Part shown: positions 16,460 to 64,000 of the stretch, piece by piece | How the letters are laid out: each line of letters begins with the position of its first letter | How positions within the stretch are numbered: the stretch's first letter is position 1 | From: Schmidtea nova | Lineage: Eukaryota | Length of the DNA: 64,000 bases | Assembly (NCBI GenBank): GCA_044892505.1 | Contig: CM097883.1 | Coordinates: forward strand, 114,142,001-114,206,000 | Reading direction: 5' to 3' | Notes under the pieces: model-generated | The model's input: the letters and a program-made list of their open reading frames with translations, nothing else | What the model was told of the DNA's origin: nothing | Database searches by the model: none | Made by a program: the position numbers and the translations under genes

Positions 16460-16479
16460 TCCTTTCATCAGCAGCACCC

Positions 16480-24773: not shown

Positions 24774-24774
24774 A

Positions 24775-26828: not shown

Positions 26829-26923
26829 GAAATAAAACTTGTTAGAAAACAATAAAACAAAATTTGAGTGACAAGATGAAACAAGATTTCAAATCAAAAT
26901 TGAAAAAATTAAATGAAATATAA

Positions 26924-29900: not shown

Positions 29901-30301
29901 TCTTTACGAAGTTCAAAAACGTATGATCTAATTGTTATGGGTACTTTTAATTGTCGCCCAATTTCTCCAGAAACATACAAATCACCAAAGTTTTTCTCTG
30001 GTTCTTGGTGATGATTTTCTAAATGTAAATCAAGTCCAATCTTTGTCGTAAATTTTTTACAAACATCACAATATATAAAAGTTGGAGTTTTTTTCTCTAC
30101 ACCTATACATATAGCCTCGTGTACTCTTATACCACTTTTTAAATATCTAACTTTACATTTTCTACAGATTGTTGAGTTGGTATTATCCAATTGTTCAAAA
30201 TTTCTCAAATGATTTTTTGATTTTTTATGAGAAATGAATGCAGAATTTCTTGTAAATCTTTTGTTGCAAATTTCACAATAAAAGTTTGGAGTACTCGACA
30301 T
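26924..30301 (-). pseudogene. polB: Protein-primed family B DNA polymerase, multiply frameshifted, with N-terminal Zn fingers and an endonuclease-VII-like Zn domain
   Basis: GKSYIPL, INVKNED, DHDHFNGKFRG...CNL, FPYDW, YLRSDV, YIDATALY, KLLNNAVFGK, YMDTDS. Confidence 0.92.
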
Positions 30302-45000: not shown

Positions 45001-46399
45001 GACAATGATTTATATATACCCCACTTCATATTTTAAAAAAAATTTATAATAATAAAAAGACATTCAAGACAAAAAATTTATTGATAATAAACATCATTCA
45101 CAACAGTTCCAGAAAACAGTCTGGTAGGGATTTCCCATAAGGAAGTTGGTTCCGTTGAGGAGTAAAACAACATCCAATTTGGGTACGATTTCTCGAAAAT
45201 ATCCAATCGTACTATACGTCTGGCAGATATGAGAACGAAACAAAAAAATTAATTCCACAGAGCAACTGCCGCTTGCGACGATTGATAGATTTTATTTTTG
45301 TGGTTCCTCATCGGAAAGCTGCTGGAGAATTTTTATTTAAGCCCTCGAATTTAAAGGGAAAAGATATTGGTCTATCATAGACTTGGCATTGAACGACGAA
45401 CGTGGTGAATCTAGTGGCCTCTGAATCAAGTGATAATAAAGTAAAAATATATTGATAAATCTAAATTACCATTTTCGACGATGATAAATTTTCCAATTGA
45501 GTAGAATTTCATAATAGGAATTTGAGAGAAATTAAATAAATAAATGATAATTCAAATTGTTATCATTTACAATTGAGGGGAAATAAATTTTTCTTCTGGT
45601 TCAAACAAGAAGAATATTTCCGTTTGGTAAATTGCACCTAATTTTGTTCCAAATAAATTTAAAAATGCAAAAAATTTTTTAAATTAAATTCAAGAATTAA
45701 ATAATTTCAAAAGACCGAAATCTGATGGTTATAAATTATAAGCAAAAGTTTTACTAAATCAATTTCGTTACTAAGGCCTCAGCAAAATTTTAAAATCAAA
45801 ATATTGAAATTTTAATAAATATTTTATTATCAATTTAAAGCAAGATAGACAATAGGATTTGAATATAAATAAAGTTTACATAAATTTTAAATATAAAAAA
45901 CATAACAATTTAAGGAAATTGCGATAATGATAAAAATTTGGGTCTAAATAAGAGCAATTTGTATATTCCCAAATATATGCATTTTCTGAAGGAATAATTG
46001 ATCACCTAATTGAGTTGCGATAATATTTTCGAATGCATGCTTGCGAATAGAATAAAAGTGCTCAAATAAATTAATTGATTAATAAAGGAATCACGATTCA
46101 GCGAAAATATTCAAATAAAAATCTCGTAATAAACCTATACAGTGATAGAACAGATAAATTAAGGGGGACAAAAATGGGCAAGAAACCTTCTATCGGTAGC
46201 CCTTGGACCCAGGAGATATTCGGTCAATCATAGTTTCGTATTGACGACGCTCACTGATTGCGAATACCCACCCACTTGTTACAGTACCAACGTTACATAG
46301 TGACGGGTAACAAGGTGGTAATTTCAATGTTTTATGTGTTGAGTTGTTGATGAGAGCCATAGAAACGTCAAGGTCATATTGACGGTCAACAACCCACCA
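42082..46399 (+). repeat. Putative 5' LTR (~4.3 kb) of the giant element
   Basis: Starts TGTTGGG with similarity to the LTR B start; carries the A/B 3' block at 46150-46360; ends CCCACCA 10 nt before the PBS. Confidence 0.6.
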
Positions 46400-46409
46400 T
46401 ATAAAAATT

Positions 46410-46427
46410 TGGGGGCTCAGCCGGGAT
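46410..46427 (+). promoter_or_regulatory. Primer-binding site, tRNA-Pro type
   Basis: TGGGGGCTCAGCCGGGAT, 16/18 identical to the classical tRNA-Pro PBS TGGGGGCTCGTCCGGGAT. Confidence 0.85.
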
Positions 46428-47819
46428 ATCATCTCATCTAGTTTGTTTTGTTTGAAGCAAAAATCAATGAAAATGGCTTTACGTGGGAATTTATTAATGT
46501 TTTTGCGTTAGAAAGATAAAAGTATTTTAAAGAAAAACGAGATTTGGTGAAAGTTTTATAAAGATCGATAATCATTTGAGTATTTTCGACGAAAATGGAA
46601 AAAATTAGGTTTAATTATTAATATTATTTATATTGCTATTATTATTTTTACGTTTATACCGTTATAAGTATTATAATTATNNNNNNNNNNNNNNNNNNNN
46701 NNNNNNNNNNNNNNNNNNNNNNNNNNNNNNNNNNNNNNNNNNNNNNNNNNNNNNNNNNNNNNNNNNNNNNNNNNNNNNNNNNNNNNNNNNNNNNNNNNNN
46801 NNNNNNNNNNNNNNNNNNNNNNNNNNNNNNNNNNNNNNNNNNNNNNNNNNNNNNNNNNNNNNNNNNNNNNNNNNNNNNNNNNNNNNNNNNNNNNNNNNNN
46901 NNNNNNNNNNNNNNNNNNNNNNNNNNNNNNNNNNNNNNNNNNNNNNNNNNNNNNNNNNNNNNNNNNNNNNNNNNNNNNNNNNNNNNNNNNNNNNNNNNNN
47001 NNNNNNNNNNNNNNNNNNNNNNNNNNNNNNNNNNNNNNNNNNNNNNNNNNNNNNNNNNGATGTCATTATTATTACTAACGATATCGGTGTTATGTTATTT
47101 GATTGAAAATGACTGAGGTATGACCCCTGTAATTTTATTTTTGTTAGCAAAGAAGGACATGGAAAGTATCGGGTCTAAAAGAAATAACGGCGAAAATGGA
47201 GAAATACGTGAATTGTTTGTTTCAATTGATATAATCTAATGAGTTTGAAGTTTGAATGTTGAAAAAGATAGATTGTTGAAGTCAGAATGATGCATGGTGA
47301 TATTGGAATGTTGATCGCGACTCAATTCGGGAATCGAAATCGGGAATAACTCTAAAATCTTATGAAATCATAAAATAATATTTATCAACGACTTAAAAAC
47401 AAATATAATGATACAGAATCAAACAAGAAAACGTGAGACTTAACGCAAATATGAAAATTTTGAGATGCACAAAATTAGGACCCTAGTAAAAGGAGATGTT
47501 ATATGACCATAAGATATGGGATGGAGTTCACGCGAATCACTTAGAGAATAAATATTCGAATACGCAAAATTTGATTTCAGTAAGCGGAAAATTACCGAAA
47601 AATTGCGAGTACAGTAAATAAAAATATAATTATCTTAAAATTGATAAAAAGTGTAAAAATCATGAAAAAAAATTGTGTAAATAAATGTTTAATTATTTTT
47701 TATGTAGAAAATATTAGTATATTCAAAAAAATATAAAAATATAAGAAAAATCATAAAAATTATGTACATAATGGCTGATTATTTTAATATTTTATTCGAA
47801 AAATATCGAATATGGACGA

Positions 47820-48185
47820 ATGGAGAAAATTATAAAAATATAAAAATATAAAAAATATAAAAATACAAAAATATATGTATAAAAATGGCTGAATATTCTG
47901 TTAGTTAAAAATATAAAAATATAAAAATATAAAAATACAAAAATATATGTATAAAAATGGCTGAATATTCTGTTAGTTAAAAATATAAAAATATAAAAAT
48001 ACAAAAATATATGTATAAAAATGGCTGAATATTCTGTTAGTTAAAAATATAAAAATATAAAAATATAAAAATACAAAAATATATGTATAAAAATGGCTGA
48101 ATATTCTGTTAGTTAAAAATATAAAAATATAAAAATATAAAAATACAAAAATATATGTATAAAAATGGCTGAATATTCTGTTAGT
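47820..48185. repeat. 64-72-bp tandem repeat (5 copies) in the element leader
   Basis: tggctgaatattctgttagt at 47886, 47958, 48022, 48094, 48166. Confidence 0.9.
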
Positions 48186-48331
48186 AGTAGTTTTGAAAAA
48201 TACAAAATATATAAAAAATTATAAAAATTCGTGTACATAGATGTTGAAGTTTTTAATTTTTATTTTCGTTCAAATTATAATGAATGGTTAATTCAAAAAG
48301 TTGTAAACACCAGTCATCATGAATATTTTAG

Positions 48332-48814
48332 ATGGAATCGATTGAGCATATTTTACTACGAATCGAGTTGTTTTTCGATTTTAAAAATGACCCATTGCAG
48401 GTGTTGAGCGAGAAACTCGAACGAGTAAATGGAATAAAAGATGAATTATTGTTGAATCCTAGACCACAACCTGAGAATCTAATAGTGATTGCAGGAGTTG
48501 TAGGAACAACAAACGATATTTCGTTAGAAACAATTTACGAATTACAACGATTGCGACTGAATAATCCGAATTTTAATCTGAAAATACAAGAATGGATTGG
48601 TAAAATCGATAAAATCATGGACAAGCTAGAGAGATCGATAAATCAACAGATCGATTCGTTCGAAAGATGTTATATTTGTCGACAAAAAGAAGCGAACATT
48701 TTATTCATGCCATGTGGGCATTTGTGTTATTGCCAGCCGTGCTCTAGAGAAATAAAGAGGTGCGTAATCTGCAAACAGACAATTGATGACAAAATCATCG
48801 TATTTTGTTCGTAA
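48332..48814 (+). CDS. C-terminal RING finger protein (IAP/MDM2/LRSAM-type RING), probable E3 ligase
   Basis: CYICRQKEANILFMPCGHLCYCQPCSREIKRCVICKQTI. Confidence 0.85.
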   Translation: MESIEHILLRIELFFDFKNDPLQVLSEKLERVNGIKDELLLNPRPQPENLIVIAGVVGTTNDISLETIYELQRLRLNNPNFNLKIQEWIGKIDKIMDKLERSINQQIDSFERCYICRQKEANILFMPCGHLCYCQPCSREIKRCVICKQTIDDKIIVFCS

Positions 48815-49836
48815 AGAATGTCGATTCGAAATAAATGTTTTAGTCATGTTGAATATCGTCGATCATCCAGTACTCCAAATCGTCGTAAAAATTAAATAAA
48901 CACAGAACACTAGGTAATTAATGATTGAGAGTCGTGTAAAAACATAACAAGTAACGGCTAATGCCGAAAAATCAAACATTAGGAAAATGGGAATTTGTGA
49001 CAAAGTTACTTTTCTTTTCTTTTTGAATTTTCTTTAATATTATTATAAATCCTCCTCATCATTATTATATCGATACAAATTTCATTACTATAAATCTTCC
49101 TCATTACTGTTATTATATCGATTATCATTATTATATCGACCATTAGGACGAGCAATAAGTAGAGTAATAAAAATTGATTTTATAAGGAGAATCTTCTGAA
49201 ATAAGAGCGATAAATGAGTGTCTGAGTAGGAAATGGGAAAATAGTACACAAATTCATAACTGAGCTATCAAAAGATAGTACGACAAATTTTAATAGAGCT
49301 ATCAAAAGATAGTACGCCAATTTTTTTTGTGACAAAAGATAGTTTGTAATAAATGGGAAAAACTTGATTATCCTGAAGAGAAAAAGTAGAATAGGTTAAC
49401 CATCGCAAATGTCGATAAATTTCGTTTGTGACTGATCATCACAAATTGCGAAACAAGTTGACGCGATTATTTTACGATTTTGAATTAGGTGAAAGGGCTA
49501 AACCCGTAATGTTCGTCTTATACACCAGTTTGCCAAGGCATGATTGGTACACTGAGGTAGAAGGCAGTAACATGAGTAAAGAGAAAGTTGCTGAGAAAAT
49601 CAGATGCAGATTTTAGAAAGTCGAAAGAGTAAAAAGTGAATTTCGATGATTATAGTAGATGATAGTATAATAAGAAAAGATTCTACCATGGTAGTTAGGG
49701 AATTGATTCGTAATTGAGAAGTAGTAGAACAATTTGAGAAAAACAGTCAGCAACAGCGAATTTAGTTAAAAATTTGAGAATAGGGAAACGAGTGATTGAA
49801 TAGCATAAAGAGAATAATCGAAGACGGCCGAGAAAA

Positions 49837-50408
49837 ATTGAGAAACTTTGAGAGTTCATGTATGTGAGAGACTTTGAGAGTCCAGATAATTGAGAAACTT
49901 TGAGAGTTCATGTATGTGAGAGACTTTGAGAGTCCAGATAATTGAGAAACTTTGAGAGTTCATGTATGTGAGAGACTTTGAGAGTCCAGATAATTGAGAG
50001 ACTTTGAGAGTCCAGATAATTGAGAGACTTTGAGAGTCCAGATAATTGAGAGACTTTGAGAGTCCAGATAATTGAGAGACTTTGAGAGTCCAGGTAATTT
50101 AGAGACTTTGAGAGTCCAGATAATTGAGCGCTCTGGGAGAGACTTTGAGAGTCCAGATAATTGAGAGACTTTGAGAGTCCAGATAATTGAGAGACTTTGA
50201 GAGTCCAGATAATTGAGAAACTTTGAGAGTTCATGTATGAGAGACTTTGAGAGTCCAGATAATTGAGAAACTTTGAGAGTTCATGTATGAGAGACTTTGA
50301 GAGTCCAGATAATTGAGAAACTTTGAGAGTTCATGTATGAGAGACTTTGAGAGTCCAGATAATTGAGAAACTTTGAGAGTTCATGTATGTGAGAGACTTT
50401 GAGAGTCC
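49837..50408. repeat. ~26-bp minisatellite with two alternating variants
   Basis: gagagactttgagagtccagataatt and gagaaactttgagagttcatgtatgt repeated about 20 times. Confidence 0.92.
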
Positions 50409-51175
50409 AATGTTTGTGGATATTGTTGAGAAATTTAGGAAAAACGTTTGAGAGATAGAATTAAATAAAACTGCGCAGAAAAAATTTTGTTATGACAGAG
50501 AAAAACATTGAACGCGAATACTTAAGGTGTAGTAATACAAACCGTTAATAAGAGCAGATAAAAGACATCGAGAAATACTTAGGAAATAAAATAATGGCCA
50601 TGAATAGATAACGAACAAGACATTTTTTCCTCAAATGCCGAGATGAGTATGATCATACTGTTATTATAGTATTAGTAATATTATTATTATTGTTACTATT
50701 ATTATTATTATTATCAGGGTATAGATAACTGATACGACCATATAGATAATTATTACGAGATATAGATAATTTAAAATCTGAGCTCAGAGTAAAAGGGGGG
50801 TAAATGGCGTCGATGAAGAAGCGATATTTTTATTTAGATTGTCCAACAGATCAAAGCCAAGCCAAGAGATAGTCAAATCAATCAGTTATTGAAGAGGTAT
50901 ATATAGAAGAAAAGAAGAAAAAGAAGTCTAATTGAAAAGGAAAGAAGTAAAAGAAAATAAATCAAAGAAGATCCAATTGAAGATAAAAGAAAGATCAGCA
51001 ATCGATATTAAACACAAATTGACAATATTACCAAACCAACCAAGTTCGTAAAGTCGAAAGATAAAGAGTCAAATCTATTAAAAACGACGAAAGGAAATTA
51101 AAAAGAAATAAAGCTGATAAATAAAGAAGTAAAATCCACAATATTAGAAAGTTTGTAGCCGATTTTCAGAAAGAA

Positions 51176-54100
51176 ATGGAGGAGAATCAGAAAGTTACCA
51201 GTGCAAACTCAGAAGATAATTTATTAAAAGAAGAGCAGAAAATAACCAGTCCAAAGGTAGAAGATAATTTGCAGGAAGAAGAAAAAGAAGTAATAACAAT
51301 GAAAATGCAACTACAACAGAATATCGAAGGAAAAGTAAATGAAATGATAACCGAATTATCAGACGTTGAAATTGAAAGAAAGGGAAATGTATATGAATTT
51401 TCAGTAAAAGATATGGAGGGAGAAGAAAAGAAGAAGTTTGTGGAGAAATATAACCGAAAAAGAAGAGAAAGAAGAAGCAATGATGATACATGTAGCATGG
51501 ACGAGAAATGGGATGAATCTACGACAATCAAATTAGAAGAAGTGGCACAAAGATTGTTAACAATTACCATGGAAGAAATGACGAAAATGGATCAAAAATC
51601 AGAAGAAAAAAGAAAATCAGCAAAACTCGAAAGATCAAGACAAACGGAAACGTCAAAGACCGAACGATTAATCAGTAACCTAAGCAAGAGTGCAGGAAAT
51701 CAATGTGAAACAACAACTGAATTACTAAAATGGGTTATAAAAAATAGTGCAAATATATCAAATATGAGATTGATAGTGAAAGAAATCGAGAAATGCAGAC
51801 GTTTATGCCCTTGGTATTCAACACAATTTGATGACATCATGAGAAAATGGAAACAACTGGAACAAACAAACGATGATCCACAGATGTGCAGATTGAAAAT
51901 TCAGTTTCCGAGTCTAGAAGAAATAAAGATGAATGTATCATTAACAACAAAGATCAAAGAGATAAAAGAGAGATTACCATTCAATTTACCATTTCACTTG
52001 AAATATGATGGAGAATCGCTGGATGATGATATAGAAATCAGTGTAACCCCGATACAAATCGAAACAAGTAATAAATTAACTATTGATAAAATTGCAGGAA
52101 GCGAGTTGACCAGAAAAGCGAGAGGTGAAGATAATCCCGAAACAACGATAATTGCAATGATGAAAACTCCAGCTGGACCAACACTTACAATTAACATCGA
52201 GGTTAATGGTGTGAAAGTTGACGCGATGATAGATACTGGCGCAAATATATCAGCAATAGATATTGATATGATACCAGAAATGTTACGGTTATGCATCGAG
52301 AAAACATCAGTAGACGTAATAACATGCAGTAAAGAATCTGTCGATATCGTTGGAAAGATATGGACAGACATCGAATACAGAAATGTAAAAATATCAACTT
52401 ATTTGACAGTAATAAAACAACTGGGTGCATCATGCATTATTGGAACAGACTTAATACCAAAACTGTTAAAAGGATCTGTAATTGATTTGAATACGATGAA
52501 GTTGAAACACCAAATTGAAGAAAATTGCACAAGAGAAACAGCGACAGAACAATCAAATCAAGAAATGACCAGAAAAGGACAAGTATGTATGTTTCGAGAG
52601 AATAAAAATGACGATTGGCTACATCGTATATTAACTGCGAGCAGAAAAGTAAATCAGCCGACAACAATATCTGAACAACCTAAGATAGTTGACGATGTAA
52701 AAATGGAGCACCGCAAAAAGATGGAATTGATCATTGAGATTACCAAAGAAATTATGCCAGAATGGTCACAAAGTAAAAATCTATTTGAAATATTGGGAGG
52801 AGTAAGCTTAATGGTTGAGGAATATGCCAAAGGAAATGAAACGACAGAAGCGATGAATACCATAAAAGAAAGATTACCAATATTATTTACAATTGCCAGT
52901 TTTAAAGATGAGATACCGTTATATCACGCAATAAAAAGTGGGAATGAACAGAGAATGTTTGAAATCATAAAACTCATGGAAAAGTGCAAGCAACATACCA
53001 ACACGAAAAACTGGAAAGATCAAACACCCTTGATGGTAGCAATTGAAAAAGGAGGATCCAAGAAACTCATAGCAGAACTGATGAGAACCGGATCAAGTTT
53101 TAAAGAAAGAGATGATAAAAATGAAACGGTGTTATCTTATGCAGTGCAAGCAAATAACCATCAAATAATCAAATATATTATGTCAAATGCTACAGAAGAA
53201 GATATTGAAGTGCTCAGTTCAGATCCAAATCCATTAGTAAATGCAGTGAACAAAGATGCCGACGAAACAACAGCAAAAATGATTAAATGGTTACATCCAG
53301 TTACGCACGAAGGAGTGATAAATGTCAATGACAGATTTGAAGACGGTGAAAATATGATAATGAAAAGAGCCATGAAAAGAAAATGGAAAATGTATAAAAC
53401 GATTAAAGCATTGCTGCGAAGACCTGATTTCAGATTTACAAACAACAAAAAAGAAAAAGAAAGAATTGGATCTAAAAGACATGAATTATATCAGCAAGTT
53501 ATCATATGGAAAGAAAATATAAAAGAAAGCAGAATTCACCGAAGCTGGAACAACGCCAAAGATGAAATAACCAAGAGAGCAAATATAAAAGCCGAAGCAG
53601 ACGAAATAGCTAAAAGATATGAAGAAATAATAAAATTAATAAATGTCGAGGACGACATTTTAAACAGAACCGAGGGTGGTTCTGATGATCACAATGAGTC
53701 TGACGATGAAGGTGAAGAGAATAACAACAACAAAACAAAGAAAGATGACAATGAGAGTATCAACAGAAACAATGACAAAGACGAGAAAGATGATGGAAAA
53801 AGCAATAACGACGAAATTGGGAACAAAAGTGATGAACCCAAGCAAGAAACTTCAAACTATGAAAAACGAACAGCATGTCTACATAAAACTCGAATAAAAG
53901 ACATAATATTACTGATATTGATGCTGTCAGCATTGAAAGGAACGGAAGCTGATGACAAGAGAAAACCAGTACAAGTATTAACACAAGGAGCAGATAATGA
54001 AGAAGCATGTTGGAGTAGCATCAACTTGCAAAGTAAAGGAGATAACCCAGTCAAATGTCAACGAGCAGAAGGAGGAGAAATCCGAATAAATGGATTAAAA

Positions 54101-54286
54101 CGAGAAACAAAATATAAAATCTGTGTTTACAAAAAGAAAGCAGCACAAAGATTGTTTAGAACACTCGTACGCCAGATAGTAGCACATAATGGTTCAAAAG
54201 TCACCCAAGAAGACATAAAAGTCATATTAACCGACGAACTAGATGAGAACATCAGAGTGTCGTCGAAACGCAAGCTGCCGGAATAA
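51176..54286 (+). CDS. 1036-aa polyprotein: acidic N-terminus, ubiquitin-like domain, retroviral-type aspartic protease, ankyrin repeats, acidic linker, internal signal-like segment
   Basis: UBL-like RLKIQFPSLEEIKMNVSLTTKIKEIKERL...HLKYDGESLDDD; INIEVNG...IDTGA...IIGTDL; ANK-like PLYHAIKSG, TPLMVAIEKG, TVLSYAVQAN; IILLILMLSALKGTEA. Confidence 0.85.
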   Translation: MEENQKVTSANSEDNLLKEEQKITSPKVEDNLQEEEKEVITMKMQLQQNIEGKVNEMITELSDVEIERKGNVYEFSVKDMEGEEKKKFVEKYNRKRRERRSNDDTCSMDEKWDESTTIKLEEVAQRLLTITMEEMTKMDQKSEEKRKSAKLERSRQTETSKTERLISNLSKSAGNQCETTTELLKWVIKNSANISNMRLIVKEIEKCRRLCPWYSTQFDDIMRKWKQLEQTNDDPQMCRLKIQFPSLEEIKMNVSLTTKIKEIKERLPFNLPFHLKYDGESLDDDIEISVTPIQIETSNKLTIDKIAGSELTRKARGEDNPETTIIAMMKTPAGPTLTINIEVNGVKVDAMIDTGANISAIDIDMIPEMLRLCIEKTSVDVITCSKESVDIVGKIWTDIEYRNVKISTYLTVIKQLGASCIIGTDLIPKLLKGSVIDLNTMKLKHQIEENCTRETATEQSNQEMTRKGQVCMFRENKNDDWLHRILTASRKVNQPTTISEQPKIVDDVKMEHRKKMELIIEITKEIMPEWSQSKNLFEILGGVSLMVEEYAKGNETTEAMNTIKERLPILFTIASFKDEIPLYHAIKSGNEQRMFEIIKLMEKCKQHTNTKNWKDQTPLMVAIEKGGSKKLIAELMRTGSSFKERDDKNETVLSYAVQANNHQIIKYIMSNATEEDIEVLSSDPNPLVNAVNKDADETTAKMIKWLHPVTHEGVINVNDRFEDGENMIMKRAMKRKWKMYKTIKALLRRPDFRFTNNKKEKERIGSKRHELYQQVIIWKENIKESRIHRSWNNAKDEITKRANIKAEADEIAKRYEEIIKLINVEDDILNRTEGGSDDHNESDDEGEENNNNKTKKDDNESINRNNDKDEKDDGKSNNDEIGNKSDEPKQETSNYEKRTACLHKTRIKDIILLILMLSALKGTEADDKRKPVQVLTQGADNEEACWSSINLQSKGDNPVKCQRAEGGEIRINGLKRETKYKICVYKKKAAQRLFRTLVRQIVAHNGSKVTQEDIKVILTDELDENIRVSSKRKLPE

Positions 54287-54480
54287 CAAGGAAAAGGATC
54301 TGTGTAAATATTGTATAAAAGTATATTGTAATAAAAGTAGTATGAAAATTGTGTAAATACTGTACAAATAATATGTTAACGAAAAAAATGGTTTAAAACG
54401 TAAAATTAATTGATGATGAAAAAACAACAACTATACCCTGTCATAGAAATATTATTCCTTTCTAGAAGCTCTAATCAACA

Positions 54481-55929
54481 ATGAAAAAACTAGCCAGTAT
54501 AATTGTCCTATGCTCCGTATTCAACACCTTATCAAGAAACAATGCAGAAGAATACTTTTTCAGCACAACAACAGCTAATCAGATTGCCTATAAAACAATT
54601 GAAAAGAGACCTAAAAACTCCTATGAAAACATTCAATTACATGTCCTATTGACAAGCTTATCCGGAACATTGCTATATTTAACAAACGACGATGGTAATC
54701 AATTAATTTTAACCCTCTATAATGAAATCAGTGAAAGAATGAAGATAGAATACAAAGAGCTTGATTATGTTGTAGAACTTTGCGAGTTATGCCAAGATCA
54801 AAGCACCAGCGAATGTGAATTGTACAAATATCGATCAATCAAAGTAAATATCAAGATTGCAGATAAACTCGCTGTCAAATGTAACCAAGGCAAGGAAACA
54901 TTCTTTGAGTATGGAGAAAAACAAATTACTAAAACTGATTACCCAACGATAAAGGAAATTGACAAAACAACAACACTTATCTACGTCATGAACACACCTC
55001 AACATGACAAAGGATACCCCAATCCTGAACAATTACAAGGTTGTGTGTATAAAGTGGAATACAATAATAAAACGCTGAAAATGGAAAGGAGCAGTGAAGA
55101 GATAAAAAACGAATGTCGAAAAATATGTACAGACAATATCTGTAATGAAGGTAAATGTTATGAAACATTTTCCGAGAAACCTATCTGTAATTGTAAATTT
55201 ACCCCAAAAAACGGTCGGTACTGTAACACCAGCAGCATTAGCCGGAAATACCGAAGAATCAACGCACAAAAGCAAACACTTTGGATAGATTATGTAAAGT
55301 TATTAATAAATAACAACTCGAAGGAGCTAATTTTTGAAATGGAGAACAAAGAATCCAGATTGTACATACGGAGAGAAAGAGCATCAATTACAGTCAAATA
55401 TGAAAACAAGAAAGACTGGTATATAGAAGGCTTTTTGGCCAACCAGGTTGATGAAGTCAAACTGATAATAATAGGCATGAAGTTCACGGAGAAAGGAATC
55501 CATTTCCATATTATCAATCAGAAAACCGAAATCTCAAGAGAAATGCCTGTTTTAGAAAAGATGAATGAAATACCTTGGAAACTTATAACGATTGCAGATA
55601 GTGTAGAAATGATATATAAGATACACCATTCACGGTACGATTGGTGCAGTACTGACATGGACGAAATTAGGAATAATGACAGAACATGTGCGGAAATTGA
55701 AGTAGTTCCTCCAACGAACGAAGCGAGAAGCCTAACAATGAAAAAGTTACCAATGGAGACAAATTATAAGATCAGTCGTCAAACATTCGTCAGTACATTA
55801 GTAATAGAAATTATAATCCTAGTCACCGGAACTATTGGAATTTTTGTCCTCGTATACAAGAGAGCAAAACGGAAACTCGAACAACGAGTAAATATGATTT
55901 TGGAACAAGTTCATATGACCCCAGTATAA
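54481..55929 (+). CDS. Type I membrane protein with an EGF-like domain
   Basis: Signal peptide MKKLASIIVLCSVF; CTDNICNEGKCYE...CNCKFTPKNGRYC; TM LVIEIIILVTGTIGIFVLVY then KRAKRK; ends TPV. Confidence 0.8.
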   Translation: MKKLASIIVLCSVFNTLSRNNAEEYFFSTTTANQIAYKTIEKRPKNSYENIQLHVLLTSLSGTLLYLTNDDGNQLILTLYNEISERMKIEYKELDYVVELCELCQDQSTSECELYKYRSIKVNIKIADKLAVKCNQGKETFFEYGEKQITKTDYPTIKEIDKTTTLIYVMNTPQHDKGYPNPEQLQGCVYKVEYNNKTLKMERSSEEIKNECRKICTDNICNEGKCYETFSEKPICNCKFTPKNGRYCNTSSISRKYRRINAQKQTLWIDYVKLLINNNSKELIFEMENKESRLYIRRERASITVKYENKKDWYIEGFLANQVDEVKLIIIGMKFTEKGIHFHIINQKTEISREMPVLEKMNEIPWKLITIADSVEMIYKIHHSRYDWCSTDMDEIRNNDRTCAEIEVVPPTNEARSLTMKKLPMETNYKISRQTFVSTLVIEIIILVTGTIGIFVLVYKRAKRKLEQRVNMILEQVHMTPV

Positions 55930-56078
55930 ATAAAGAGGAACAGTGTATATAGTGTATAAAATTATATTGTATTATAAAAGTAGAATATATTTGTATAATA
56001 AAAATTTAAAAATCCAAAAAAATGAATACCTCAAAACTGGGAAAAACAAATGATAATATTGTGTAATTATTGACAGAA

Positions 56079-56714
56079 ATGAATCCGAACAACGAGAATC
56101 AAAGTTATCAAACATCAGTTCCAACGTTCAATGAACCATCAAATCAAACTCAGTTTCCAGAAGATACCAATATACGAGAAAGAGAAGGGTCACTGCAAAC
56201 CCCAGTAATCGAAAATGAAACGCAAAATCCAACAATTGACGATAGAAATCTGATATACCAAGTCGAAATTCCACTATTTGATGAAACCATGAACCCAATT
56301 CAAACGACATTCGTATTAAATCAACAACCAACAAATAGCCAGACTCAATCAATATCAGCTCCGATGGTTTATCAGCAGACAATGACGCAAGAGTTATCAT
56401 GGAAAACGCAATGTGAATTATTAAGCAGGATGTTGAATCAAGCCTATGCACAATGGAAAAACGAACAAGCTTTGTTAACAGAAAGTGTAAACAGAAATTT
56501 ATCATATCTTGCTAAAATGGAAGAACAACAACAAATGATAATCCAAAAGGACCAGAGAATTGAATGGTTAACAAGACATACGGAGTGGCAAACAAACGAA
56601 ATTAGAAGATTGAATGAGACGCGAGAAGAAGTCAGAGCATGGTATAACTGGTTAGACAATTTTCCAGAACCGGTTCGAGAACCTGACTCGACGGGAAGGG
56701 ATGAACTATTATAA
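56079..56714 (+). CDS. Q/N/T-rich disordered plus coiled-coil protein
   Basis: Open frame; first ATG 2 nt after a CAG acceptor (track starts at TTG 56070). Confidence 0.7.
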   Translation: MNPNNENQSYQTSVPTFNEPSNQTQFPEDTNIREREGSLQTPVIENETQNPTIDDRNLIYQVEIPLFDETMNPIQTTFVLNQQPTNSQTQSISAPMVYQQTMTQELSWKTQCELLSRMLNQAYAQWKNEQALLTESVNRNLSYLAKMEEQQQMIIQKDQRIEWLTRHTEWQTNEIRRLNETREEVRAWYNWLDNFPEPVREPDSTGRDELL

Positions 56715-56808
56715 AAATTTAAAACCAGTGTAAATAAAATGTAAAAATGTGAATATGAATAAAACTTGGTATAAAGAGCAAAACGAAAAAATTATAAATT
56801 TTTTTAGA

Positions 56809-58212
56809 ATGCAGACCGAGAATCAGCAGAAACAAGAAGAATTGATCGAACTATATCAGATACTACAGAGACAACGGATAGAACCAACAGAATTTCAAGA
56901 AAGATTTAAATGTAAAGTATGTAGAAATTTATTGATAGAACCCAGACAAACTGAATGTGGATGTCGAATATGCACTAATTGCGTGATGAAAATAATACGA
57001 ACTAAGCAGAAGCTATGTCCTGAATGTGGTGAAGCAATAATAGATCAATTTGACCAAACCAGACCAGATATCGCAATGAATCGGGAAATTATGAACGCAG
57101 CAACAACCTGTCCAAATAAACCATGTGTATGGAGTGGGCCAATAAAATGGATCGCCAAACACCTTTATAATTGTGATGGTACGAAAGCCAAATGCAAGTG
57201 GTGTGAAGAAGAAATGTTGAAGAAAGTCAAAGACAGTCATGAGGAAATGTGTGAACAACGACAGGAAATCTGTGAGTTTTGCAACGAAACAGACGCTTGG
57301 ATAGTGTTAAAAGATGAGCATTGGAATATAGAAGAAGGGCAAGTATGTGACGAGTATGAAGGTAATTGTAATCAATGTGGAATGGCAGAAAACGTGAAGC
57401 TAAAAGAACATTGGGAAATATGCGAAAAGAAGCCTACTGCATGTCCACTAAAATTATTCAATTGCAAAGTGAGATTACCAAAAGAGGAAATACAAAAGCA
57501 TGTAGATGAAAATAGTGTCAATCATTTGAGAACCGTTGTGGAAGCTATTGGAGCAACCGCACTGGTAATTGGAGAAGCCAACACAGAAATAAAATCTCAC
57601 AAAATCATGATACAAGAGATGTTGGATACGAGAGGAAACTTTGAAAGAATAAAAGAACAAATGATCCAAAAAATGATACTATTAGACCAGAAAATAGCAG
57701 AAATATCAACAATCCAACAAAGGTTGGAAAGCATATTGCCAGCAATGGAAGAACTACCCGTCACACCCTACTATTGGAAAATCACAGAATTTACAGAGAA
57801 ATTGAGACTAGCAAGAGAAGGAGGTCAACGTGTATGGACAAGTCCACCTTGTCACAGTTGGAAACATGGTTTCAAGCTTAGATTCAAAGTATATCTAACG
57901 GGAGACGGACTAGGAGCCGGAACTCATTTATCTGTATATTTTCAAATATGTAAAGGAGATTATGACGATTGGTTAGAATGGCCCTACGATTGCGATATAA
58001 CTATGATGATCGGAACAAAGGAAAACAACGTTCGGGAAGTATTCAGACCAAACTTGAAGAAGGTAGAAGCAGCTTATAGGAAGCCGATCGAAAACTACAA
58101 CGTAGCTGTAGGAAATCCACGTTTTATTGCATTACATTATTTAACCACAGAACAATCATTATATTTGGTAAATAATATCCTGTATCTGATTATCGAAGTG
58201 AGGAAGCCGTAG
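56809..58212 (+). CDS. TRAF: Full-architecture TRAF (RING, TRAF Zn fingers, coiled coil, MATH)
   Basis: CKVCRNLL...CGCRIC...CPEC RING; CPNKPC, CEFC, CPLKLFNC fingers; YYWKITEF...SPPC...YLTGDGLGAGTHLSVYF...DDWLEWP MATH domain; ATG 56809 preferred over GTG 56749. Confidence 0.95.
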   Translation: MQTENQQKQEELIELYQILQRQRIEPTEFQERFKCKVCRNLLIEPRQTECGCRICTNCVMKIIRTKQKLCPECGEAIIDQFDQTRPDIAMNREIMNAATTCPNKPCVWSGPIKWIAKHLYNCDGTKAKCKWCEEEMLKKVKDSHEEMCEQRQEICEFCNETDAWIVLKDEHWNIEEGQVCDEYEGNCNQCGMAENVKLKEHWEICEKKPTACPLKLFNCKVRLPKEEIQKHVDENSVNHLRTVVEAIGATALVIGEANTEIKSHKIMIQEMLDTRGNFERIKEQMIQKMILLDQKIAEISTIQQRLESILPAMEELPVTPYYWKITEFTEKLRLAREGGQRVWTSPPCHSWKHGFKLRFKVYLTGDGLGAGTHLSVYFQICKGDYDDWLEWPYDCDITMMIGTKENNVREVFRPNLKKVEAAYRKPIENYNVAVGNPRFIALHYLTTEQSLYLVNNILYLIIEVRKP

Positions 58213-58432
58213 TGAAGATGGAAAAAGTGTAAATATGTCTGTATTATAATGAAGTATCTGTATCATAATGTACAAAATAAAATTAAAAAATCACAAAAAA
58301 CATAAAAATTAAAAAGAAATATAAAAATGAGAAAAACCAAAAAATCAAATATAAAAATGAGAAAAATCAAAATTTTGTAAATATAGAAAACAAAAATTGT
58401 GAAAATATAACGGAGAAAATATTGTAGATACA

Positions 58433-59602
58433 ATGACTGAAAGGAAGATCGTGAAAATACGAGAAGATGACAGATCATTCAAAAGTTTATGCGAATTAAT
58501 GAAAAGAGGTAAAGAAAAGATGTCAAAACCAATTACCTCAGAATTGATTTATTGTCAATTTACACGAACAATATCGAATGTTCCCAAGGAAAGAAATTAT
58601 GGCAAATTCAAAACTATCGATGAAACGTTGAAAAATGAGAACCGAAGATATATAACCTTTTTACAACAAGACAATTTCTATGAGAAGCAATACAGAAAAT
58701 TCGCCAAAGATGGTTTGTATTTTGCAGGGACAATTGAGAAACCCGATAAAGTAACCTGTGTATTTTGCAGAATTGAAATAGAACCTTGGAGAATTAACGA
58801 TGATCCACTAACAGAACATAGAAAACTTTCACCCACATGCCAGTTTGTGTTAAAGGCATGCGAAAAACTAAGAAAACCAACATCAATGAACAACGACAAA
58901 GAAGAAAAACCCAAAATAGTAACGATAACTTCAACAGGTCCAGCAAAGATACGATTCATAGAAATTGATCCAAAATATACGATTAATGGGAGAACTGACA
59001 CCTTTGCAGATAAAAAGATGGGTATCAGATTAGCAATAGAAGGTTTTTATGCAATAAATGAATCAACAGCTGAATGTTCAGAGTGTGGAATACAATATCA
59101 ATTACCAAAAGAGGAAGGAGAATACCTGAAACACAACGAATATTGTAAATATGGAGAAGAATTATATGAAGACGAAGAACCGATCAATTATAAAAACCCA
59201 GAGATGCCTGTTAATGAATTATTAGTAGATAAGATATTAGACGAACCACGAACTCAAAAGGTAATGGAACGCACCGGCAAAAGCGAAATATTTGTGAAAG
59301 AAGTTGTCAGAGAGAGATTGAGAAGAAATGGAGAAACATTTGGATCAACCCTAGAATTTTTCAAAGCTATGATACAGTTCACCAGAAAATCCCAAGTTGT
59401 CAACCCAGAATCATGTATCAAGAAAGTTATATTAAATAAACACCCCTGTTCAATCTGTTGGATAAAGAAAGTGGAAGTTATTCATTTACCATGTGGACAT
59501 CTGTTGGCATGTGAAAATTGTAGCAATAAATTGAGATTGTGCTCAATGTGCAGGAAACCGGTCGACAAACGGATCAAGGGATTCCGTTATGCCGATCAAT
59601 AA
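58433..59602 (+). CDS. IAP: Inhibitor of apoptosis (one canonical BIR, one degenerate BIR, C-terminal RING)
   Basis: FAKDGLYF...DKVTCVFC...W...DDPLTEHRKLSPTCQF; RTDTF...EGFY...AECSEC...HNEYC; CSICW...LPCGHLLACENC...CSMCR. Confidence 0.95.
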   Translation: MTERKIVKIREDDRSFKSLCELMKRGKEKMSKPITSELIYCQFTRTISNVPKERNYGKFKTIDETLKNENRRYITFLQQDNFYEKQYRKFAKDGLYFAGTIEKPDKVTCVFCRIEIEPWRINDDPLTEHRKLSPTCQFVLKACEKLRKPTSMNNDKEEKPKIVTITSTGPAKIRFIEIDPKYTINGRTDTFADKKMGIRLAIEGFYAINESTAECSECGIQYQLPKEEGEYLKHNEYCKYGEELYEDEEPINYKNPEMPVNELLVDKILDEPRTQKVMERTGKSEIFVKEVVRERLRRNGETFGSTLEFFKAMIQFTRKSQVVNPESCIKKVILNKHPCSICWIKKVEVIHLPCGHLLACENCSNKLRLCSMCRKPVDKRIKGFRYADQ

Positions 59603-59736
59603 TCCAATCAAGCAACCTTGTAAATAAATTGTAAAGATTTTAACTATAATCGATGTATACAAGTATTATTTAATAAGCATGAGCAACAAAAAATGTATAA
59701 ACAAAAGGAAATTACCCATGTTATTATTATTTCAGG

Positions 59737-61284
59737 ATGAATATACAACAATTGATAGACATCCTAGATCAGGAGATGGCCAAAAGACAAGAACAACTAA
59801 ATCAAATGAGAAATTATGAACAAAGAATGGAAGCCATCCAAGAGAACGTTAAAATGATTGAGAAACGAACCCAAGAGATCAATAAAATAAAAGAGGAAAA
59901 TGAGGAACTACGAAAAATAATAATCGACAAGGCACATATCGAAGCTGAACTAGACAATTATAAACGAGAGTACAGGGAAATGGAGAGAAAACTCGAGCAC
60001 GAACAACGGAAGTCGGTACCGTTGAAAAATCAAGCGAGATTAAGAAAAGAGGAGCTCGAAACTTATAAAAGAGATACCGAAACAAGGTACGACAACACCA
60101 TAAGATTCTATCAGCAGCAACTCGAAAGTGAAAGAAACAGATATGAAGCCATGAAAAAGAAATGGGAAAAGTGTCGAGATGAAGCATTTGTTTTGAGAGG
60201 ACAACCTCAAAAGAAGCTTAAAGTCAGAACAAGAAACATTGAACCTGAAAGCGAACAAGAAAAGATCATTAGAAAGGTTAAAGCAGAGGCTAGGAAATGG
60301 AAACAAGAACACCAAGATTTATTGGAAATGGCTCGACACAGAAAAATGCTACACGAAGAATTACTAAGACGGAGAGACGTTCAAATCGAGGCTCTGAAAG
60401 AGGAATGTCATTGGTATGCAGACATACGTCATGAGGAAACGGAGAAACTCAGAAAAGAAATATTCCAGTTGAAAACGAGCGGACAGTTCAGAGAAAGAAG
60501 CATAAAGCATCAAATAAAGTGGCTAATAGAACAAGCCAGAACATGGAAAAAGACCTGGAAAAGAACTCGAGACGAACTACGAGAATTTCCAAAGAAGCTG
60601 ATGTCGATAAATGAAGCAGAATTGTGGGAAAATGCAGAAAAGCAAGAAATAGAAAACAAAGAATTAAAACGACAAATTCAATTAAAAACTGAATGGAATC
60701 AAAGGAGAATGAAATTTACCAGGAATCAAGAAGCTCGTATCAAATATCTGGAATTCGAAAATAGGCAATATGATCAACAAAAGAATATGGATGATAGAAG
60801 TATTGAAGAATTGACAATCGAATTGACTATTGCAAACCGTGAAGTCAACGGATATCGAGGAACAAATACTCATAAAGATATTGTCATTCAACACCAGCGA
60901 AGGCAGATAGAAGAGACAAAGGCCGAATGTGAGAAAGCGATCCAGCAATCGCAGTATGAGATTGAAATGGCTATCCAAAGTTTGGAAGAAAATCGCCAAA
61001 ACTATGAAAGAGAGATTGAAAGGTTGAAAAATATGGAAAATACGAGAGAGCTCGAGATAGAAAAGGAACAGCTGAGTGAAGAACTCGATTATATGACCTA
61101 TTTGCTAGATGAAGAGATAGAAATCTCAAGAACTTTGCGAGAGAGAGTTCAGAGCCTACAAAATCAACCTCCAATAATTCTATGGCCACTATATCCAACA
61201 CCAATACAACCTGTACATTTGGAGCAAGAAAATCCTCAAATCGAAGATGAAGGGTTCGGAGAAATTGAAGAGACGTTTGTATAA
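59737..61284 (+). CDS. 515-aa long coiled-coil protein
   Basis: Intact ORF, E/K/R/Q-rich heptads throughout, ends EETFV. Confidence 0.8.
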   Translation: MNIQQLIDILDQEMAKRQEQLNQMRNYEQRMEAIQENVKMIEKRTQEINKIKEENEELRKIIIDKAHIEAELDNYKREYREMERKLEHEQRKSVPLKNQARLRKEELETYKRDTETRYDNTIRFYQQQLESERNRYEAMKKKWEKCRDEAFVLRGQPQKKLKVRTRNIEPESEQEKIIRKVKAEARKWKQEHQDLLEMARHRKMLHEELLRRRDVQIEALKEECHWYADIRHEETEKLRKEIFQLKTSGQFRERSIKHQIKWLIEQARTWKKTWKRTRDELREFPKKLMSINEAELWENAEKQEIENKELKRQIQLKTEWNQRRMKFTRNQEARIKYLEFENRQYDQQKNMDDRSIEELTIELTIANREVNGYRGTNTHKDIVIQHQRRQIEETKAECEKAIQQSQYEIEMAIQSLEENRQNYEREIERLKNMENTRELEIEKEQLSEELDYMTYLLDEEIEISRTLRERVQSLQNQPPIILWPLYPTPIQPVHLEQENPQIEDEGFGEIEETFV

Positions 61285-61523
61285 ATAATAAAAGTGAATG
61301 TAAAGTGTAAAAAGAAATTGAAATGTAGTGTAAAAAGAAAAAGTTGTAAAATATATCCAAAAAACTAAATAAAAAGCAGAAAAATAAAAAATTCAATAAA
61401 AATTAGAAAAAATGAAAAACAAATAAAAATTAGAAAATGTTAAAAATGATAAAAATGATAAAAACAAAAACAAAATTAAAAAAAAACTGTAGAAAAGAGT
61501 TATGAAAATTCAAATTATAGAAA

Positions 61524-62099
61524 ATGAGATTATTGAAGCAAAGATCAGAACCAAAACAACAAACGATATCAAAAGAAAGATTCAAAAAATGGAAAAGAGC
61601 AACAGAGCAATATTATCAAGACCAAATAGACCAATTGAAGGAAGTAGTGAGCAAAGATAGAAAATATATCGCACAAATGGAGCAAGAGTGCGAGACGATG
61701 GAAATAATCAAGCGAGAAAATTATCTATTTCGCCAACAAAATGGTCTCACTCAAAAATATTGCGACAGACAGAAGCAAGAGATTGACAGACTCAAAAGGG
61801 AAATAAGCAGTGAACAGAACACTGATAATAAAAGGAGAATTACGATCGAGTCATTACAACGATCATTGAAGAACAAACAGAAAAAGATTATAAAAAGAGA
61901 GAAACAGATAATAAAGTTGAAAAGTGAAATCATCGAAGCAAAGTTTGATACGTTCAAAGCAAAGAAAGTTGTAGAAATCAAAACGGCAGAAAATTACGTC
62001 CTCAAAGAACAAAGGCGAAAAGAAGCAGACGAGATTGCAAAAATGGGAAACTGGAAGCCAGAAAGTCCGTTAAAGCTAAATGAAAAGATGAAAGAATAA
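61524..62099 (+). CDS. 191-aa basic coiled-coil protein
   Basis: Intact ORF after a TAG acceptor. Confidence 0.75.
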   Translation: MRLLKQRSEPKQQTISKERFKKWKRATEQYYQDQIDQLKEVVSKDRKYIAQMEQECETMEIIKRENYLFRQQNGLTQKYCDRQKQEIDRLKREISSEQNTDNKRRITIESLQRSLKNKQKKIIKREKQIIKLKSEIIEAKFDTFKAKKVVEIKTAENYVLKEQRRKEADEIAKMGNWKPESPLKLNEKMKE

Positions 62100-62192
62100 A
62101 ATATATCCAAACTCATGTAAATACCCCTGTAAATAAAAAAGAGAAAATTTGAAAAATCATTAAACAAAATTGAATCTATAAATCTATAGAAA

Positions 62193-63017
62193 ATGAGCAA
62201 TCTAATGAGGATCACAACAACCATCATGATATTTATAATTACAAACTGCCGAAGCGAAGAAGCATTGAGTCAATGTCAAGCAAGCCATCCATTTAGAAGA
62301 TACGATAGCATTTGTGTAAGCTATCAAGAAATTTGTAGCACCAGAAATGAGGAGTGTCAGCAAATCCAACTACAATGTCAACAATGTCCTAAATCCAGAG
62401 AAGATTCAATCACCATCCTTAAACAATTGAGAAATGAAACTCAACAATTAATCCAACTACAAATCTCCTTAACCAAAAGAAACAATCTTCAACTAAAGAA
62501 ACAGCTCGAAAACCAATCATCCTTCAAACAGTTAACGACCGAACTAAAGAAATTGAGCAAGTTAATAGAAAAATCTCTAAATAATAAAGATGAAGTTAAT
62601 GAGGAAAGATCAAGTTTCACAGAGGAGTTAAATCAAAAACTAAAAACTCAACTTCATCAGACCGAGAGAATTATAAAGCAATTAATATTACCCGAAAAGC
62701 AAAAGGAGATTATCCCTAAACAAGGATCAACCAATAAGGACGTCAGAGACCGAGAAGCAGCCATCACAGTCGTTCTACAAGGCATCAGTCTTTTCGCGGT
62801 CATAATGATCCTTAGCATTGCTGCATCAATCGGATTAGAAAAAATGAAATTAGAAAAAGCGAAAATCCAGCTGAATACCATCAAACGAATCACCCATGAA
62901 GACAACAACCCGTCAGAAAATTTTCTAAGATCAATATTTGAAGATCCAGTTCCAGAACAGCCTAATTCTGAGACATCTACAACCTCGGTGCAGATGAATT
63001 ACTTCTATAAACAATAA
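62193..63017 (+). CDS. Type I membrane protein with Cys-rich N-terminus and coiled-coil ectodomain
   Basis: Signal-like MRITTTIMIFIITNC; six Cys; heptads; TM AITVVLQGISLFAVIMILSIAASIGL. Confidence 0.75.
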   Translation: MSNLMRITTTIMIFIITNCRSEEALSQCQASHPFRRYDSICVSYQEICSTRNEECQQIQLQCQQCPKSREDSITILKQLRNETQQLIQLQISLTKRNNLQLKKQLENQSSFKQLTTELKKLSKLIEKSLNNKDEVNEERSSFTEELNQKLKTQLHQTERIIKQLILPEKQKEIIPKQGSTNKDVRDREAAITVVLQGISLFAVIMILSIAASIGLEKMKLEKAKIQLNTIKRITHEDNNPSENFLRSIFEDPVPEQPNSETSTTSVQMNYFYKQ

Positions 63018-63213
63018 TACGATTCGATACCCCTTTTGACAAGTCATGTATTTTCTTCCATTCATTTGATCTATCTATCTATTTGTATTCTCATCTTTAA
63101 CAATATCATCATTAAATCATAACCCTGTGTAAAGATCGTAACGCCTTTGTAAATAACAAAATTATTTATCGTCATTATTCAAATTCTTTCTATTAGAAAC
63201 ACAAAAATCAACA

Positions 63214-64000
63214 ATGAAATCGTACCGAGAAGTTTTCCTAATCGCCATGATCACAACAATTTATTGTCATCTCGAAGAAACCCAGAAATCAAGCCAATTA
63301 AGCCCAAATCAACAATGTAATAAAGAACCATTGGAAATCTCTAACAACAAACAACTATCCGAAAAGATTGAGCAAGCCAAAATCGAAATTCAAAATACCC
63401 TTTTCAATCAAAATGATGAAATTTCAGGTCTAAAAAGAATAGCAAGGATAATATTAGCCGATTTAGCGATCAGAGATACATTCGAGGATATCTTTGATAA
63501 TGATCGAGAAACCCGTGACGTAATAAAAAGTCTCACCAAAGAACTTAAAACGAATATAGGCAAGTTAATCGATCAGCTAACGATAAATTCATCAAGTCCG
63601 AAATGTCTGAAACAAATCCAGAAAATTCATCATAACCTGTCCCAGCAGATTTCCGAAGTAGGAAACCAAACGGCACAACAACTAAGAAAGGCTTATTTCG
63701 AAAGCCTGACATTTAAGAATAAAATCCACAATCACATAAACGAGATATCGAAACCGGATAACAATCAAGGCAGAGACAAGTGCAGAGCACCCCTCCTATC
63801 ATCCAAACGAATTCTCGATATCTGCCTGATCATCCTTAACTTTTTCCTAATAATCGGAATTTGTGGTATAATACGGTTAGGCTTGACCGCCAAAAGAATG
63901 ATGAACAACATGACCTCCGAACAATCCAGAAGAAAAGATGACAAGAAACAGTTGATCAATACCGAGTCATTCAAACTATTCCAGTCGAAGATCCAACCAA
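63214..64000 (+). CDS. Type I membrane protein, 3'-truncated by the window edge (not in the ORF track)
   Basis: Manual translation MKSYREVFLIAMITTIYC...; TM ILDICLIILNFFLIIGICGIIRLGL; no stop before 64000. Confidence 0.75.
   Translation, partial: MKSYREVFLIAMITTIYCHLEETQKSSQLSPNQQCNKEPLEISNNKQLSEKIEQAKIEIQNTLFNQNDEISGLKRIARIILADLAIRDTFEDIFDNDRETRDVIKSLTKELKTNIGKLIDQLTINSSSPKCLKQIQKIHHNLSQQISEVGNQTAQQLRKAYFESLTFKNKIHNHINEISKPDNNQGRDKCRAPLLSSKRILDICLIILNFFLIIGICGIIRLGLTAKRMMNNMTSEQSRRKDDKKQLINTESFKLFQSKIQP

Follow-up and report, generated by a model that had tools for sequence, protein, structure and literature searches.

TRAF and IAP genes as cargo of a non-autonomous Burro1-derived element in Schmidtea nova

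The DNA considered here, called the window, is a stretch of 64,000 nucleotides (nt) from Schmidtea nova (GenBank assembly GCA_044892505.1, contig CM097883.1, positions 114,142,001 to 114,206,000 of the forward strand). Near its end lie two adjacent intronless genes, one for a TRAF (56809..58212) and one for an IAP (58433..59602), both carried by a long terminal repeat (LTR) element related to Burro1. Positions are those of the window, and all features of this element are on the plus strand. A first-pass annotation had recognized the pair and had read it as a mobile TNF-receptor survival module.

The TRAF and IAP genes

The TRAF gene encodes 467 amino acids (aa) from its likely start, with a RING, zinc fingers, a short coiled coil and a MATH domain. 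The open reading frame (ORF) runs from 56755 to 58212 and comprises 485 aa from the first in-frame ATG at 56755. Domain searches matched RING, zf-TRAF and MATH (MATH E 8e-22), PDB sequence searches agree with this assignment, and all ligands of the RING and the zinc fingers are present. The gene is thus a complete intronless TRAF, as had been described. The start previously given for it, 56809, is probably also right, because codons 1-18 vary freely (14 amino-acid changing vs. 3 silent variants), whereas codons 19-485 are constrained (130 vs. 144), and because an acceptor-like site directly precedes 56809, i.e., TTTTAG in 48 of 49 copies and TTTCAG in the remaining one.

The IAP gene starts 220 nt after the end of the TRAF gene (58212 to 58433), the same spacing as noted before, and encodes 389 aa. 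Its BIR (BIR1; about 58616-58858, aa 80-139, E 4e-16) is followed by a degenerate BIR-like domain with a weak profile score (about 58973-59161), UBA-like helices (about 59210-59383, aa 260-317) and a RING (about 59438-59578, E 9e-11). PDB sequence searches and the ESM Atlas (IAP clusters at 0.94) agree with the assignment, and the protein has the features by which the family is recognized, one BIR with CX2CX16HX6C and a C-terminal RING. The zinc ligands of BIR1 are invariant in 49 of 49 copies, as are those of the RING except for one Cys, found in 48 of 49. The earlier designation as an intronless BIR-BIR-RING IAP holds for the BIR and the RING, but the second BIR is degenerate: taken alone it gave no BIR match in Pfam and no BIR chain in the PDB search, its 4.2 bits against a three-sequence BIR profile were reached by 9 of 1000 shuffles, and its Cys/His spacing, read from the sequence, is shortened to CX2CX15HX3C. 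The domain at aa 260-317, the only part for which the single-sequence AlphaFold model is usable (mean predicted local distance difference test score 34.8), is UBA-like only by that model and by a sub-threshold alignment to cIAP1. The architecture of cIAP1/2 (three BIRs, UBA, CARD and RING) was not matched, as no CARD was found and at most two BIRs are present. BIR1 aligns over its full length with BIR1 of DIAP1 and keeps acidic residues at positions that we take to be those of the peptide groove; presumably, it mixes type I and type II features. A search for homologous proteins returned no match to TRAF, IAP or BIR1, which is uninformative given the matches in the PDB and among representative sequences.

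An element without pol and its likely helper

The Burro1-derived non-autonomous element occupies 42082..64000 and, beyond the window end, extends to 68656 in window numbering, 26,575 bp in all; ten ORFs, all on one strand, fill its internal region. With neighbouring genome stretches added, the 5' LTR (42082..46399; 4,318 bp, TG...CA) could be compared with the 3' LTR, which lies beyond the window end at 64339-68656 (L011:339-4656), and a single mismatch was found across 4,318 bp. As the first-pass annotation had it, both genes lie within an LTR element. Its multi-kb LTRs (4.3 kb), its total of 26.6 kb within the 25-35 kb of Burro elements and its target site duplication (TSD) of 4 bp, AACG, are of Burro type. 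Six more full copies have the same layout and LTR pairs that are 99.9-100% identical, and 4-bp TSDs are present in 5 of 5 readable cargo copies.

Reverse transcriptase (RT), RNase H (RH), integrase (IN), Gag core and Env are absent from all seven full copies, and RT, RH and IN gave no match in any of 40 further 10-kb stretches chosen from BIR matches; in 34 of these stretches, 95% or more of the shortened polyprotein described next is present. A pol region hidden in the 378-nt N stretch at 46681-47058 was considered and rejected, since that stretch is too short and the six unmasked copies also lack pol. What is left is a 1,036-aa internally deleted Burro polyprotein (51176..54286) with a linker, a weakly matching SUMO-like domain, an aspartic protease (PR) with intact DTG and an ankyrin region, devoid of Gag core, MATH, Env, RT, RH and IN. 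The element is a non-autonomous derivative that has kept only PR, not a typical Burro member, a point that the first-pass annotation had overlooked. Of the RING, ubiquitin-like and ankyrin proteins that were thought to be captured along with the pair, the RING protein (48332-48814) stands, but the SUMO-like and ankyrin segments are parts of the shortened polyprotein. Since the LTR pairs of pol-less copies are nearly identical, these copies appear to have moved recently without enzymes of their own.

A MATH search led to a likely helper, a 29-kb element with a 4,606-aa polyprotein in the order Gag-MATH-Env-PR-RT-RH-IN-ankyrin, which is the order given for Burro1 in section 7 of PMC6431247. The Burro assignment rests on this published domain order, compared without a named Burro1 sequence. 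The 1,036-aa ORF matches four separate blocks of the helper polyprotein at 41-64% identity, the LTRs of the two elements are 95% identical over the first 651 bp, 97% over the last 235 bp and 76-84% in the middle, and the primer-binding site and the sequence before the 3' LTR are each exact in 8 of 10 helper copies. The helper also has 4-bp TSDs, and the leader and the upstream RING gene are common to both elements. These matches point to the window element as a deleted derivative of a Burro1-type element. Two copies look like deletion and recombination intermediates: L126 has a helper-like leader (90% to the helper, 80% to the window copy), and L117 retains more gag than the window copy, as would be expected from co-packaging and stepwise deletion.

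An autonomous carrier of the TRAF-IAP cassette was sought among seven atypical copies and rejected, as RT, RH and IN were found in none; the gag/env matches in these copies stem from retained gag in L117 and from unrelated flanking sequence in L123 (32-38%). In 10 of 10 helper copies, the two flanks (5' and 3') contained neither a BIR nor an accessory TRAF, and one further copy, screened over its whole sequence, had no BIR either (11 copies in all). Conversely, 28 of 30 BIR loci that were fetched belong to the window element family, the other two resembling host exons. As far as sampled, the BIR-bearing IAP thus resides on the defective partner.

The primer-binding site (46410..46427), which we take to be of the tRNA-Pro type, lies 10 nt from the LTR. 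By eye, a plain polypurine tract was not seen before the 3' LTR, and the sequence at 46400-46427 after the 5' LTR resembles the reverse complement of that at 64310-64338 (L011:310-338) before the 3' LTR; plus-strand priming may be unusual. The leader contains tandem arrays at 47779-48299 and 49784-50445 (64/72-bp and 26-bp units), the second of which is also found in the helper.

Abundance, selection and expression signals

First-look searches of the genome yielded 1,375 candidates of the gene pair, 1,249 of the TRAF-IAP junction, 1,295 of the BIR and 1,040 of the helper RT, none of which is a copy number; the genes are therefore no single-copy host loci. If all candidates were full length, the family would make up at most about 30 Mb, or 2.5% of the genome. 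The linkage suggested by the window extends across copies: TRAF lies upstream of the BIR in 28 of 28 family BIR loci, and TRAF and IAP occur together in all 40 stretches. Of 52 copies, 42 have both genes intact and ten are broken.

Both TRAF and IAP are under purifying selection, with pairwise dN/dS values of 0.13 and 0.21, respectively. With expectations drawn from the mutation spectrum at four-fold sites and variants common to at least 2 of 49 copies, corrected values are 0.21 for TRAF (34:59) and 0.31 for IAP (54:65), and by domain 0.23 for BIR1, 0.26 for the second BIR and 0.06 for the IAP RING. The linker (0.70) and the N-terminus (0.51) of the IAP are not significantly constrained, and IAP singleton variants are nearer neutral (0.60). 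The linker, TRAF codons 1-18 and the last cargo ORF (see below) serve as internal controls. The testable findings named at the outset as speaking against the first-pass annotation did not turn up, for the genes lie between the LTRs, are multi-copy and do not evolve neutrally. Given that these variants arose in copies lacking pol, the encoded proteins are likely to count in the spread of their own copy.

An acceptor-like site precedes 9 of 10 cargo ATGs, compared with 19 of 420 other ATGs, and downstream of 9 of 10 cargo stops there are AATAAA-like signals together with two to five TGTA words. Contigs from four sequencing runs of unknown kind from one study, which cannot show expression, contain GT..AG joints at 51128-51170 and near 59630-59737 that end just before two cargo ATGs; no joint linking a leader donor with the acceptor of TRAF or of IAP was among the matches listed. 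A sequencing-run search listed no RNA run containing the element stretch. Taken together, the signals suggest one transcription unit that would be cut into single-gene mRNAs by cis- or trans-splicing. Burro1 itself is transcribed upon loss of PIWI-interacting RNAs (piRNAs), according to an excerpt of PMC8532177.

The remaining ORFs surround the pair. The upstream RING gene is a 160-aa ORF (48332..48814) with an IAP-type RING and no BIR; it is also present in the helper (65-92% identical) and in a second Burro family discussed below (25%), and its pairwise dN/dS is 0.17, compared with 0.27 for the 1,036-aa polyprotein. A 482-aa ORF with a signal peptide and a transmembrane segment (54481..55929), without a Pfam match over the cut-off, is optional: all six other full copies lack it, 6 of 40 stretches contain at least part of it, and contigs cover it at about a tenth or less of the neighbouring depth in run X4. 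A 211-aa ORF (56079..56714; corrected dN/dS 0.25) precedes the TRAF gene. The IAP gene is followed by a 515-aa coiled-coil ORF (59737..61284; pairwise dN/dS 0.06 on 7 copies), a constrained 191-aa coiled-coil-like ORF (61524..62099), a constrained 274-aa ORF with a hydrophobic N-terminus and a likely transmembrane segment (62193..63017) and a 264-aa ORF with a likely signal peptide and transmembrane segment (63214..64000, ending at 64008). Unlike the other tested cargo ORFs, this last one has a dN/dS of about 0.8 on 7 copies and may be relaxed or diversifying.

Elsewhere in the window, a small gypsy-like element lies on the minus strand at 16346-20304, with identical 114-bp direct repeats and pieces of a gag knuckle, protease, RT and RH. 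Polinton/Maverick-like remains at 22633-30301 include fragments of an A32-type ATPase and a protein-primed polymerase B as well as a 96-bp perfect inverted repeat (23427-23619).

Origin and role of the cassette

A second autonomous Burro family (C1:552.09 Mb, C3:83.17 Mb and C1:352.33 Mb; L068-L079) sheds light on how the cassette was built. Its 3.3-kb LTRs contain two ORFs of 229 and 209 aa, its primer site is as in the window element and the helper, and downstream of the polyprotein it carries a cassette of TRAF, coiled coil and secreted protein, three ORFs whose ATG comes 1-2 nt after a YAG and whose stops are followed by TGTA clusters. The full TRAF is 35% identical to that of the window; the gene immediately downstream of it is not an IAP but is homologous to the 515-aa coiled-coil gene (30-31%). 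Because TRAF and coiled coil occur here without IAP, TRAF and IAP most likely arrived separately. The simplest reading is an old TRAF-coiled-coil block into which the IAP was inserted later; alternatively, the IAP could have been lost from the second family instead of gained in the window element. Most likely, the cassette would have been built stepwise through recombination among Burro families, with the IAP added between TRAF and coiled coil.

Two quick trees, both with long branches, place the element TRAFs. The MATH tree drew on 350-650-aa proteins among 150 representatives and on 32 host loci before removal of identical rows, and with a MATH cut-off of 105 aa, 147 of 149 rows were used; the full-length TRAF tree had 37 hand-picked rows. 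Element rows formed one group in each, with Shimodaira-Hasegawa approximate likelihood ratio test values of 92 and 97, containing 0 of 25 and 0 of 9 host rows, respectively. They stand apart from TRAF2/3/5-like rows and have sequences named Dugesia and Dendrocoelum among their neighbours. The FENIVCVLNRE coiled-coil stretch of a fish TRAF2-like row, which we take to be the cIAP-binding region, is a gap in all planarian-type rows, in alignments of the coiled coil that are uncertain. By these comparisons, the TRAF is of a planarian type and not TRAF2-like. A passage of PMC7586133 places planarian TRAFs as outgroup to vertebrate TRAFs.

With no sampled host TRAF/MATH row (0 of 25) inside the element clade, the proposal that the element was a vehicle for the expansion of host TRAFs is not upheld. 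That the family is expanded in planarians is described in a passage of PMC6109357, and since high-scoring host MATH matches lie mostly in tandem clusters (C2 405-455 Mb), the expansion looks like tandem duplication and not like delivery by an element. This host TRAF/MATH cluster is dense, some of its genes are intronless, and it includes a host BIR exon at 446.67 Mb (L089). A single host donor locus for TRAF and IAP was considered and rejected, since this BIR has no TRAF or element protein match in the surrounding 40 kb; a search with it returned only that BIR. To our knowledge, full TRAFs are rare in mobile DNA generally, as the first-pass annotation had also stated. This does not hold for Burro, however, as MATH and BIR cargo has already been described there (PMC6431247, in its section 7).

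The reading that we favour, and hold to be moderately probable, is that TRAF and IAP are cargo of a helper-copied non-autonomous Burro1-derived element and are likely kept for a predicted benefit to host-cell survival. The complete Burro1-type helper would likely copy the window element in trans. A single LTR-driven transcript would be processed into single-gene mRNAs by means of splice acceptors ahead of the individual ATGs and TGTA/AATAAA clusters behind the stops, and full-length RNA would be packaged in helper particles. The IAP is predicted to act on caspases or their antagonists, whereas the TRAF would likely act on stress signalling alone and not within a TRAF2-cIAP complex. Copies whose proteins sustain a stressed, retroelement-expressing cell would leave more new insertions, and hence there would be selection on shared variants. 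By analogy, such a role fits the B-IAP of Burro1, which is reported to guard stem cells against caspase-mediated death (PMC13465017, in passages citing Lee 2026); RNA interference (RNAi) against host TRAF increased cell death, according to an excerpt of PMC7586133.

The first-pass annotation had instead proposed co-capture of a TRAF2-cIAP pair, which is not borne out by the position of the TRAF outside the TRAF2 group, by the gap at the motif region or by the second family without IAP. The two proteins might still form a physical E3 complex like that of TRAF2 and cIAP, its halves assembled stepwise for joint function, although we consider this unlikely. In its favour, TRAF and IAP are adjacent in every copy examined, the TRAF coiled coil is constrained (corrected dN/dS 0.32, p 0.013), BIR1 matches cIAP1/2 BIR1 chains at E 2-4e-8, slightly above cIAP BIR3 chains, and it ends in RKLSP, presumably as type I BIR1s do. 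Moreover, in mammals one cIAP BIR1 binds the coiled coil of a TRAF trimer, at a motif in the TRAF2 coiled coil located at 283-293 (excerpts of PMC6262405 and PMC3172091). However, this TRAF is not TRAF2-like in the trees, the TRAF2 motif region is missing from the alignment, the second Burro family retains TRAF without IAP, BIRs of DIAP1, NAIP and survivin score equal to or above cIAP BIR1, and adjacency says little where all cargo genes are adjacent and constrained. Direct binding of TRAF and IAP is likewise doubtful. The further claim of TNFR/NF-kB involvement finds no support: an exon-wise genome search, without an animal control for these families, gave no match to TNF, TNFR or Rel domains.

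The cargo might also serve replication of the element itself, through ubiquitin-dependent particle assembly, RNA handling or blocking of antiviral or piRNA defence. The three RING proteins, SUMO-like domain, ankyrins and intact protease, all constrained, would suit this, the IAP RING is the most constrained part, and selection through replication would likewise act on shared variants. Yet BIR1 and the second BIR-like domain are constrained as well, the genome contains caspases (19 exon matches), and the IAP of a related element is reported, in the passages of PMC13465017, to be anti-apoptotic, which makes a purely replicative role improbable. Inert passengers, with low dN/dS inherited from an autonomous ancestor and spread by good cis-sequences only, might account for the ten broken copies, for the near-neutral IAP singletons, as expected after insertion, and for expression being so far only predicted. 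This is very improbable, since constraint was measured among pol-less copies that are 92-100% identical, with neutral internal controls, and no autonomous carrier of the cassette was found among the copies examined.

Several points weigh against a helper-copied survival cargo. Purifying selection acts on every other tested cargo ORF except the last, not on TRAF and IAP alone, and p values are nominal as variants are not independent. Because copies were picked from BIR or DNA top matches, intact genes are overrepresented and linkage is tested for the most part from the IAP side. The helper was assigned by shared sequence only, and the second Burro family has an identical primer-binding site; helpers were screened for BIR with a profile built from three sequences, which left the middle of the polyprotein uncovered in 10 of 11 copies. 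The acceptor rule was set after the sequence had been seen and applies to only one of five ORFs of the second family. BIR1 has Leu in place of the Trp of type II BIRs, which makes binding of caspases or of the IAP-binding motif uncertain, and expression and activity are predicted from sequence.

More tentatively, labour may be divided, the helper supplying Gag, Env and Pol and its defective, equally abundant partner, in place of pol, a spliced survival cassette of IAP, TRAF and others. If so, each element would depend on the other, and perhaps both would be needed by the stem cells of the worm. The two would then resemble, in the germline, a helper virus and a gene-transducing defective genome maintained as mutualists. 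The usual view of non-autonomous LTR elements is that their coding sequence decays and that they are no more than parasites of their helpers. Here, a 26-kb non-autonomous element retains eight protein genes under purifying selection, and its candidates are at least as abundant as those of the helper. It holds the type of anti-apoptotic gene through which Burro1 is reported, in the passages of PMC13465017, to act as a mutualist during planarian regeneration, and it allows a direct test of mutualism split between two elements. Counts of planarian TRAFs and IAPs in genomes and transcriptomes may include element copies.

Comparison with known systems

With TRAF2/TRAF1-cIAP1/2, the pair has in common a TRAF with RING, zinc fingers, coiled coil and MATH and an IAP with an N-terminal BIR and a C-terminal RING. 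It differs in a planarian-type TRAF with a short coiled coil without the TRAF2 motif region and in an IAP that has no CARD and only one clear BIR, the other being degenerate. Burro1/GYPSM1 of Schmidtea mediterranea, as far as described in the relevant section of PMC6431247, is alike in multi-kb LTRs, leader tandem repeats and SUMO-like, protease and ankyrin parts. Published members encode a single polyprotein of about 4,900 aa and are autonomous. The window element, by contrast, is without pol, Env and Gag core, and its eight or nine consecutive ORFs include one for a complete TRAF and another for a complete IAP. B-IAP, known here via citing passages (PMC13465017), is likewise a BIR and RING IAP on a Burro element. 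It is described on Burro1 itself, whereas the BIR-bearing IAP found here sits on a defective partner beside a TRAF, and the Burro1-type copies examined hold only the upstream RING gene. A literature search, beyond whose reach lay Grohme 2018, Lee 2026 and supplements, returned no description of a non-autonomous Burro or of a Burro TRAF-IAP pair. What appears new is a very large, abundant non-autonomous partner holding an IAP that its helper lacks in the copies examined.

Helper-dependent retroviruses with captured host genes and the plant non-autonomous LTR elements LARD, TR-GAG and Bs1 offer the closest parallels in lost replication genes, kept cis-signals, dependence on a helper and host-derived cargo. 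The window element differs from them in its size of 26 kb, in its many constrained cargo genes and in a germline abundance that equals or exceeds that of its helper.

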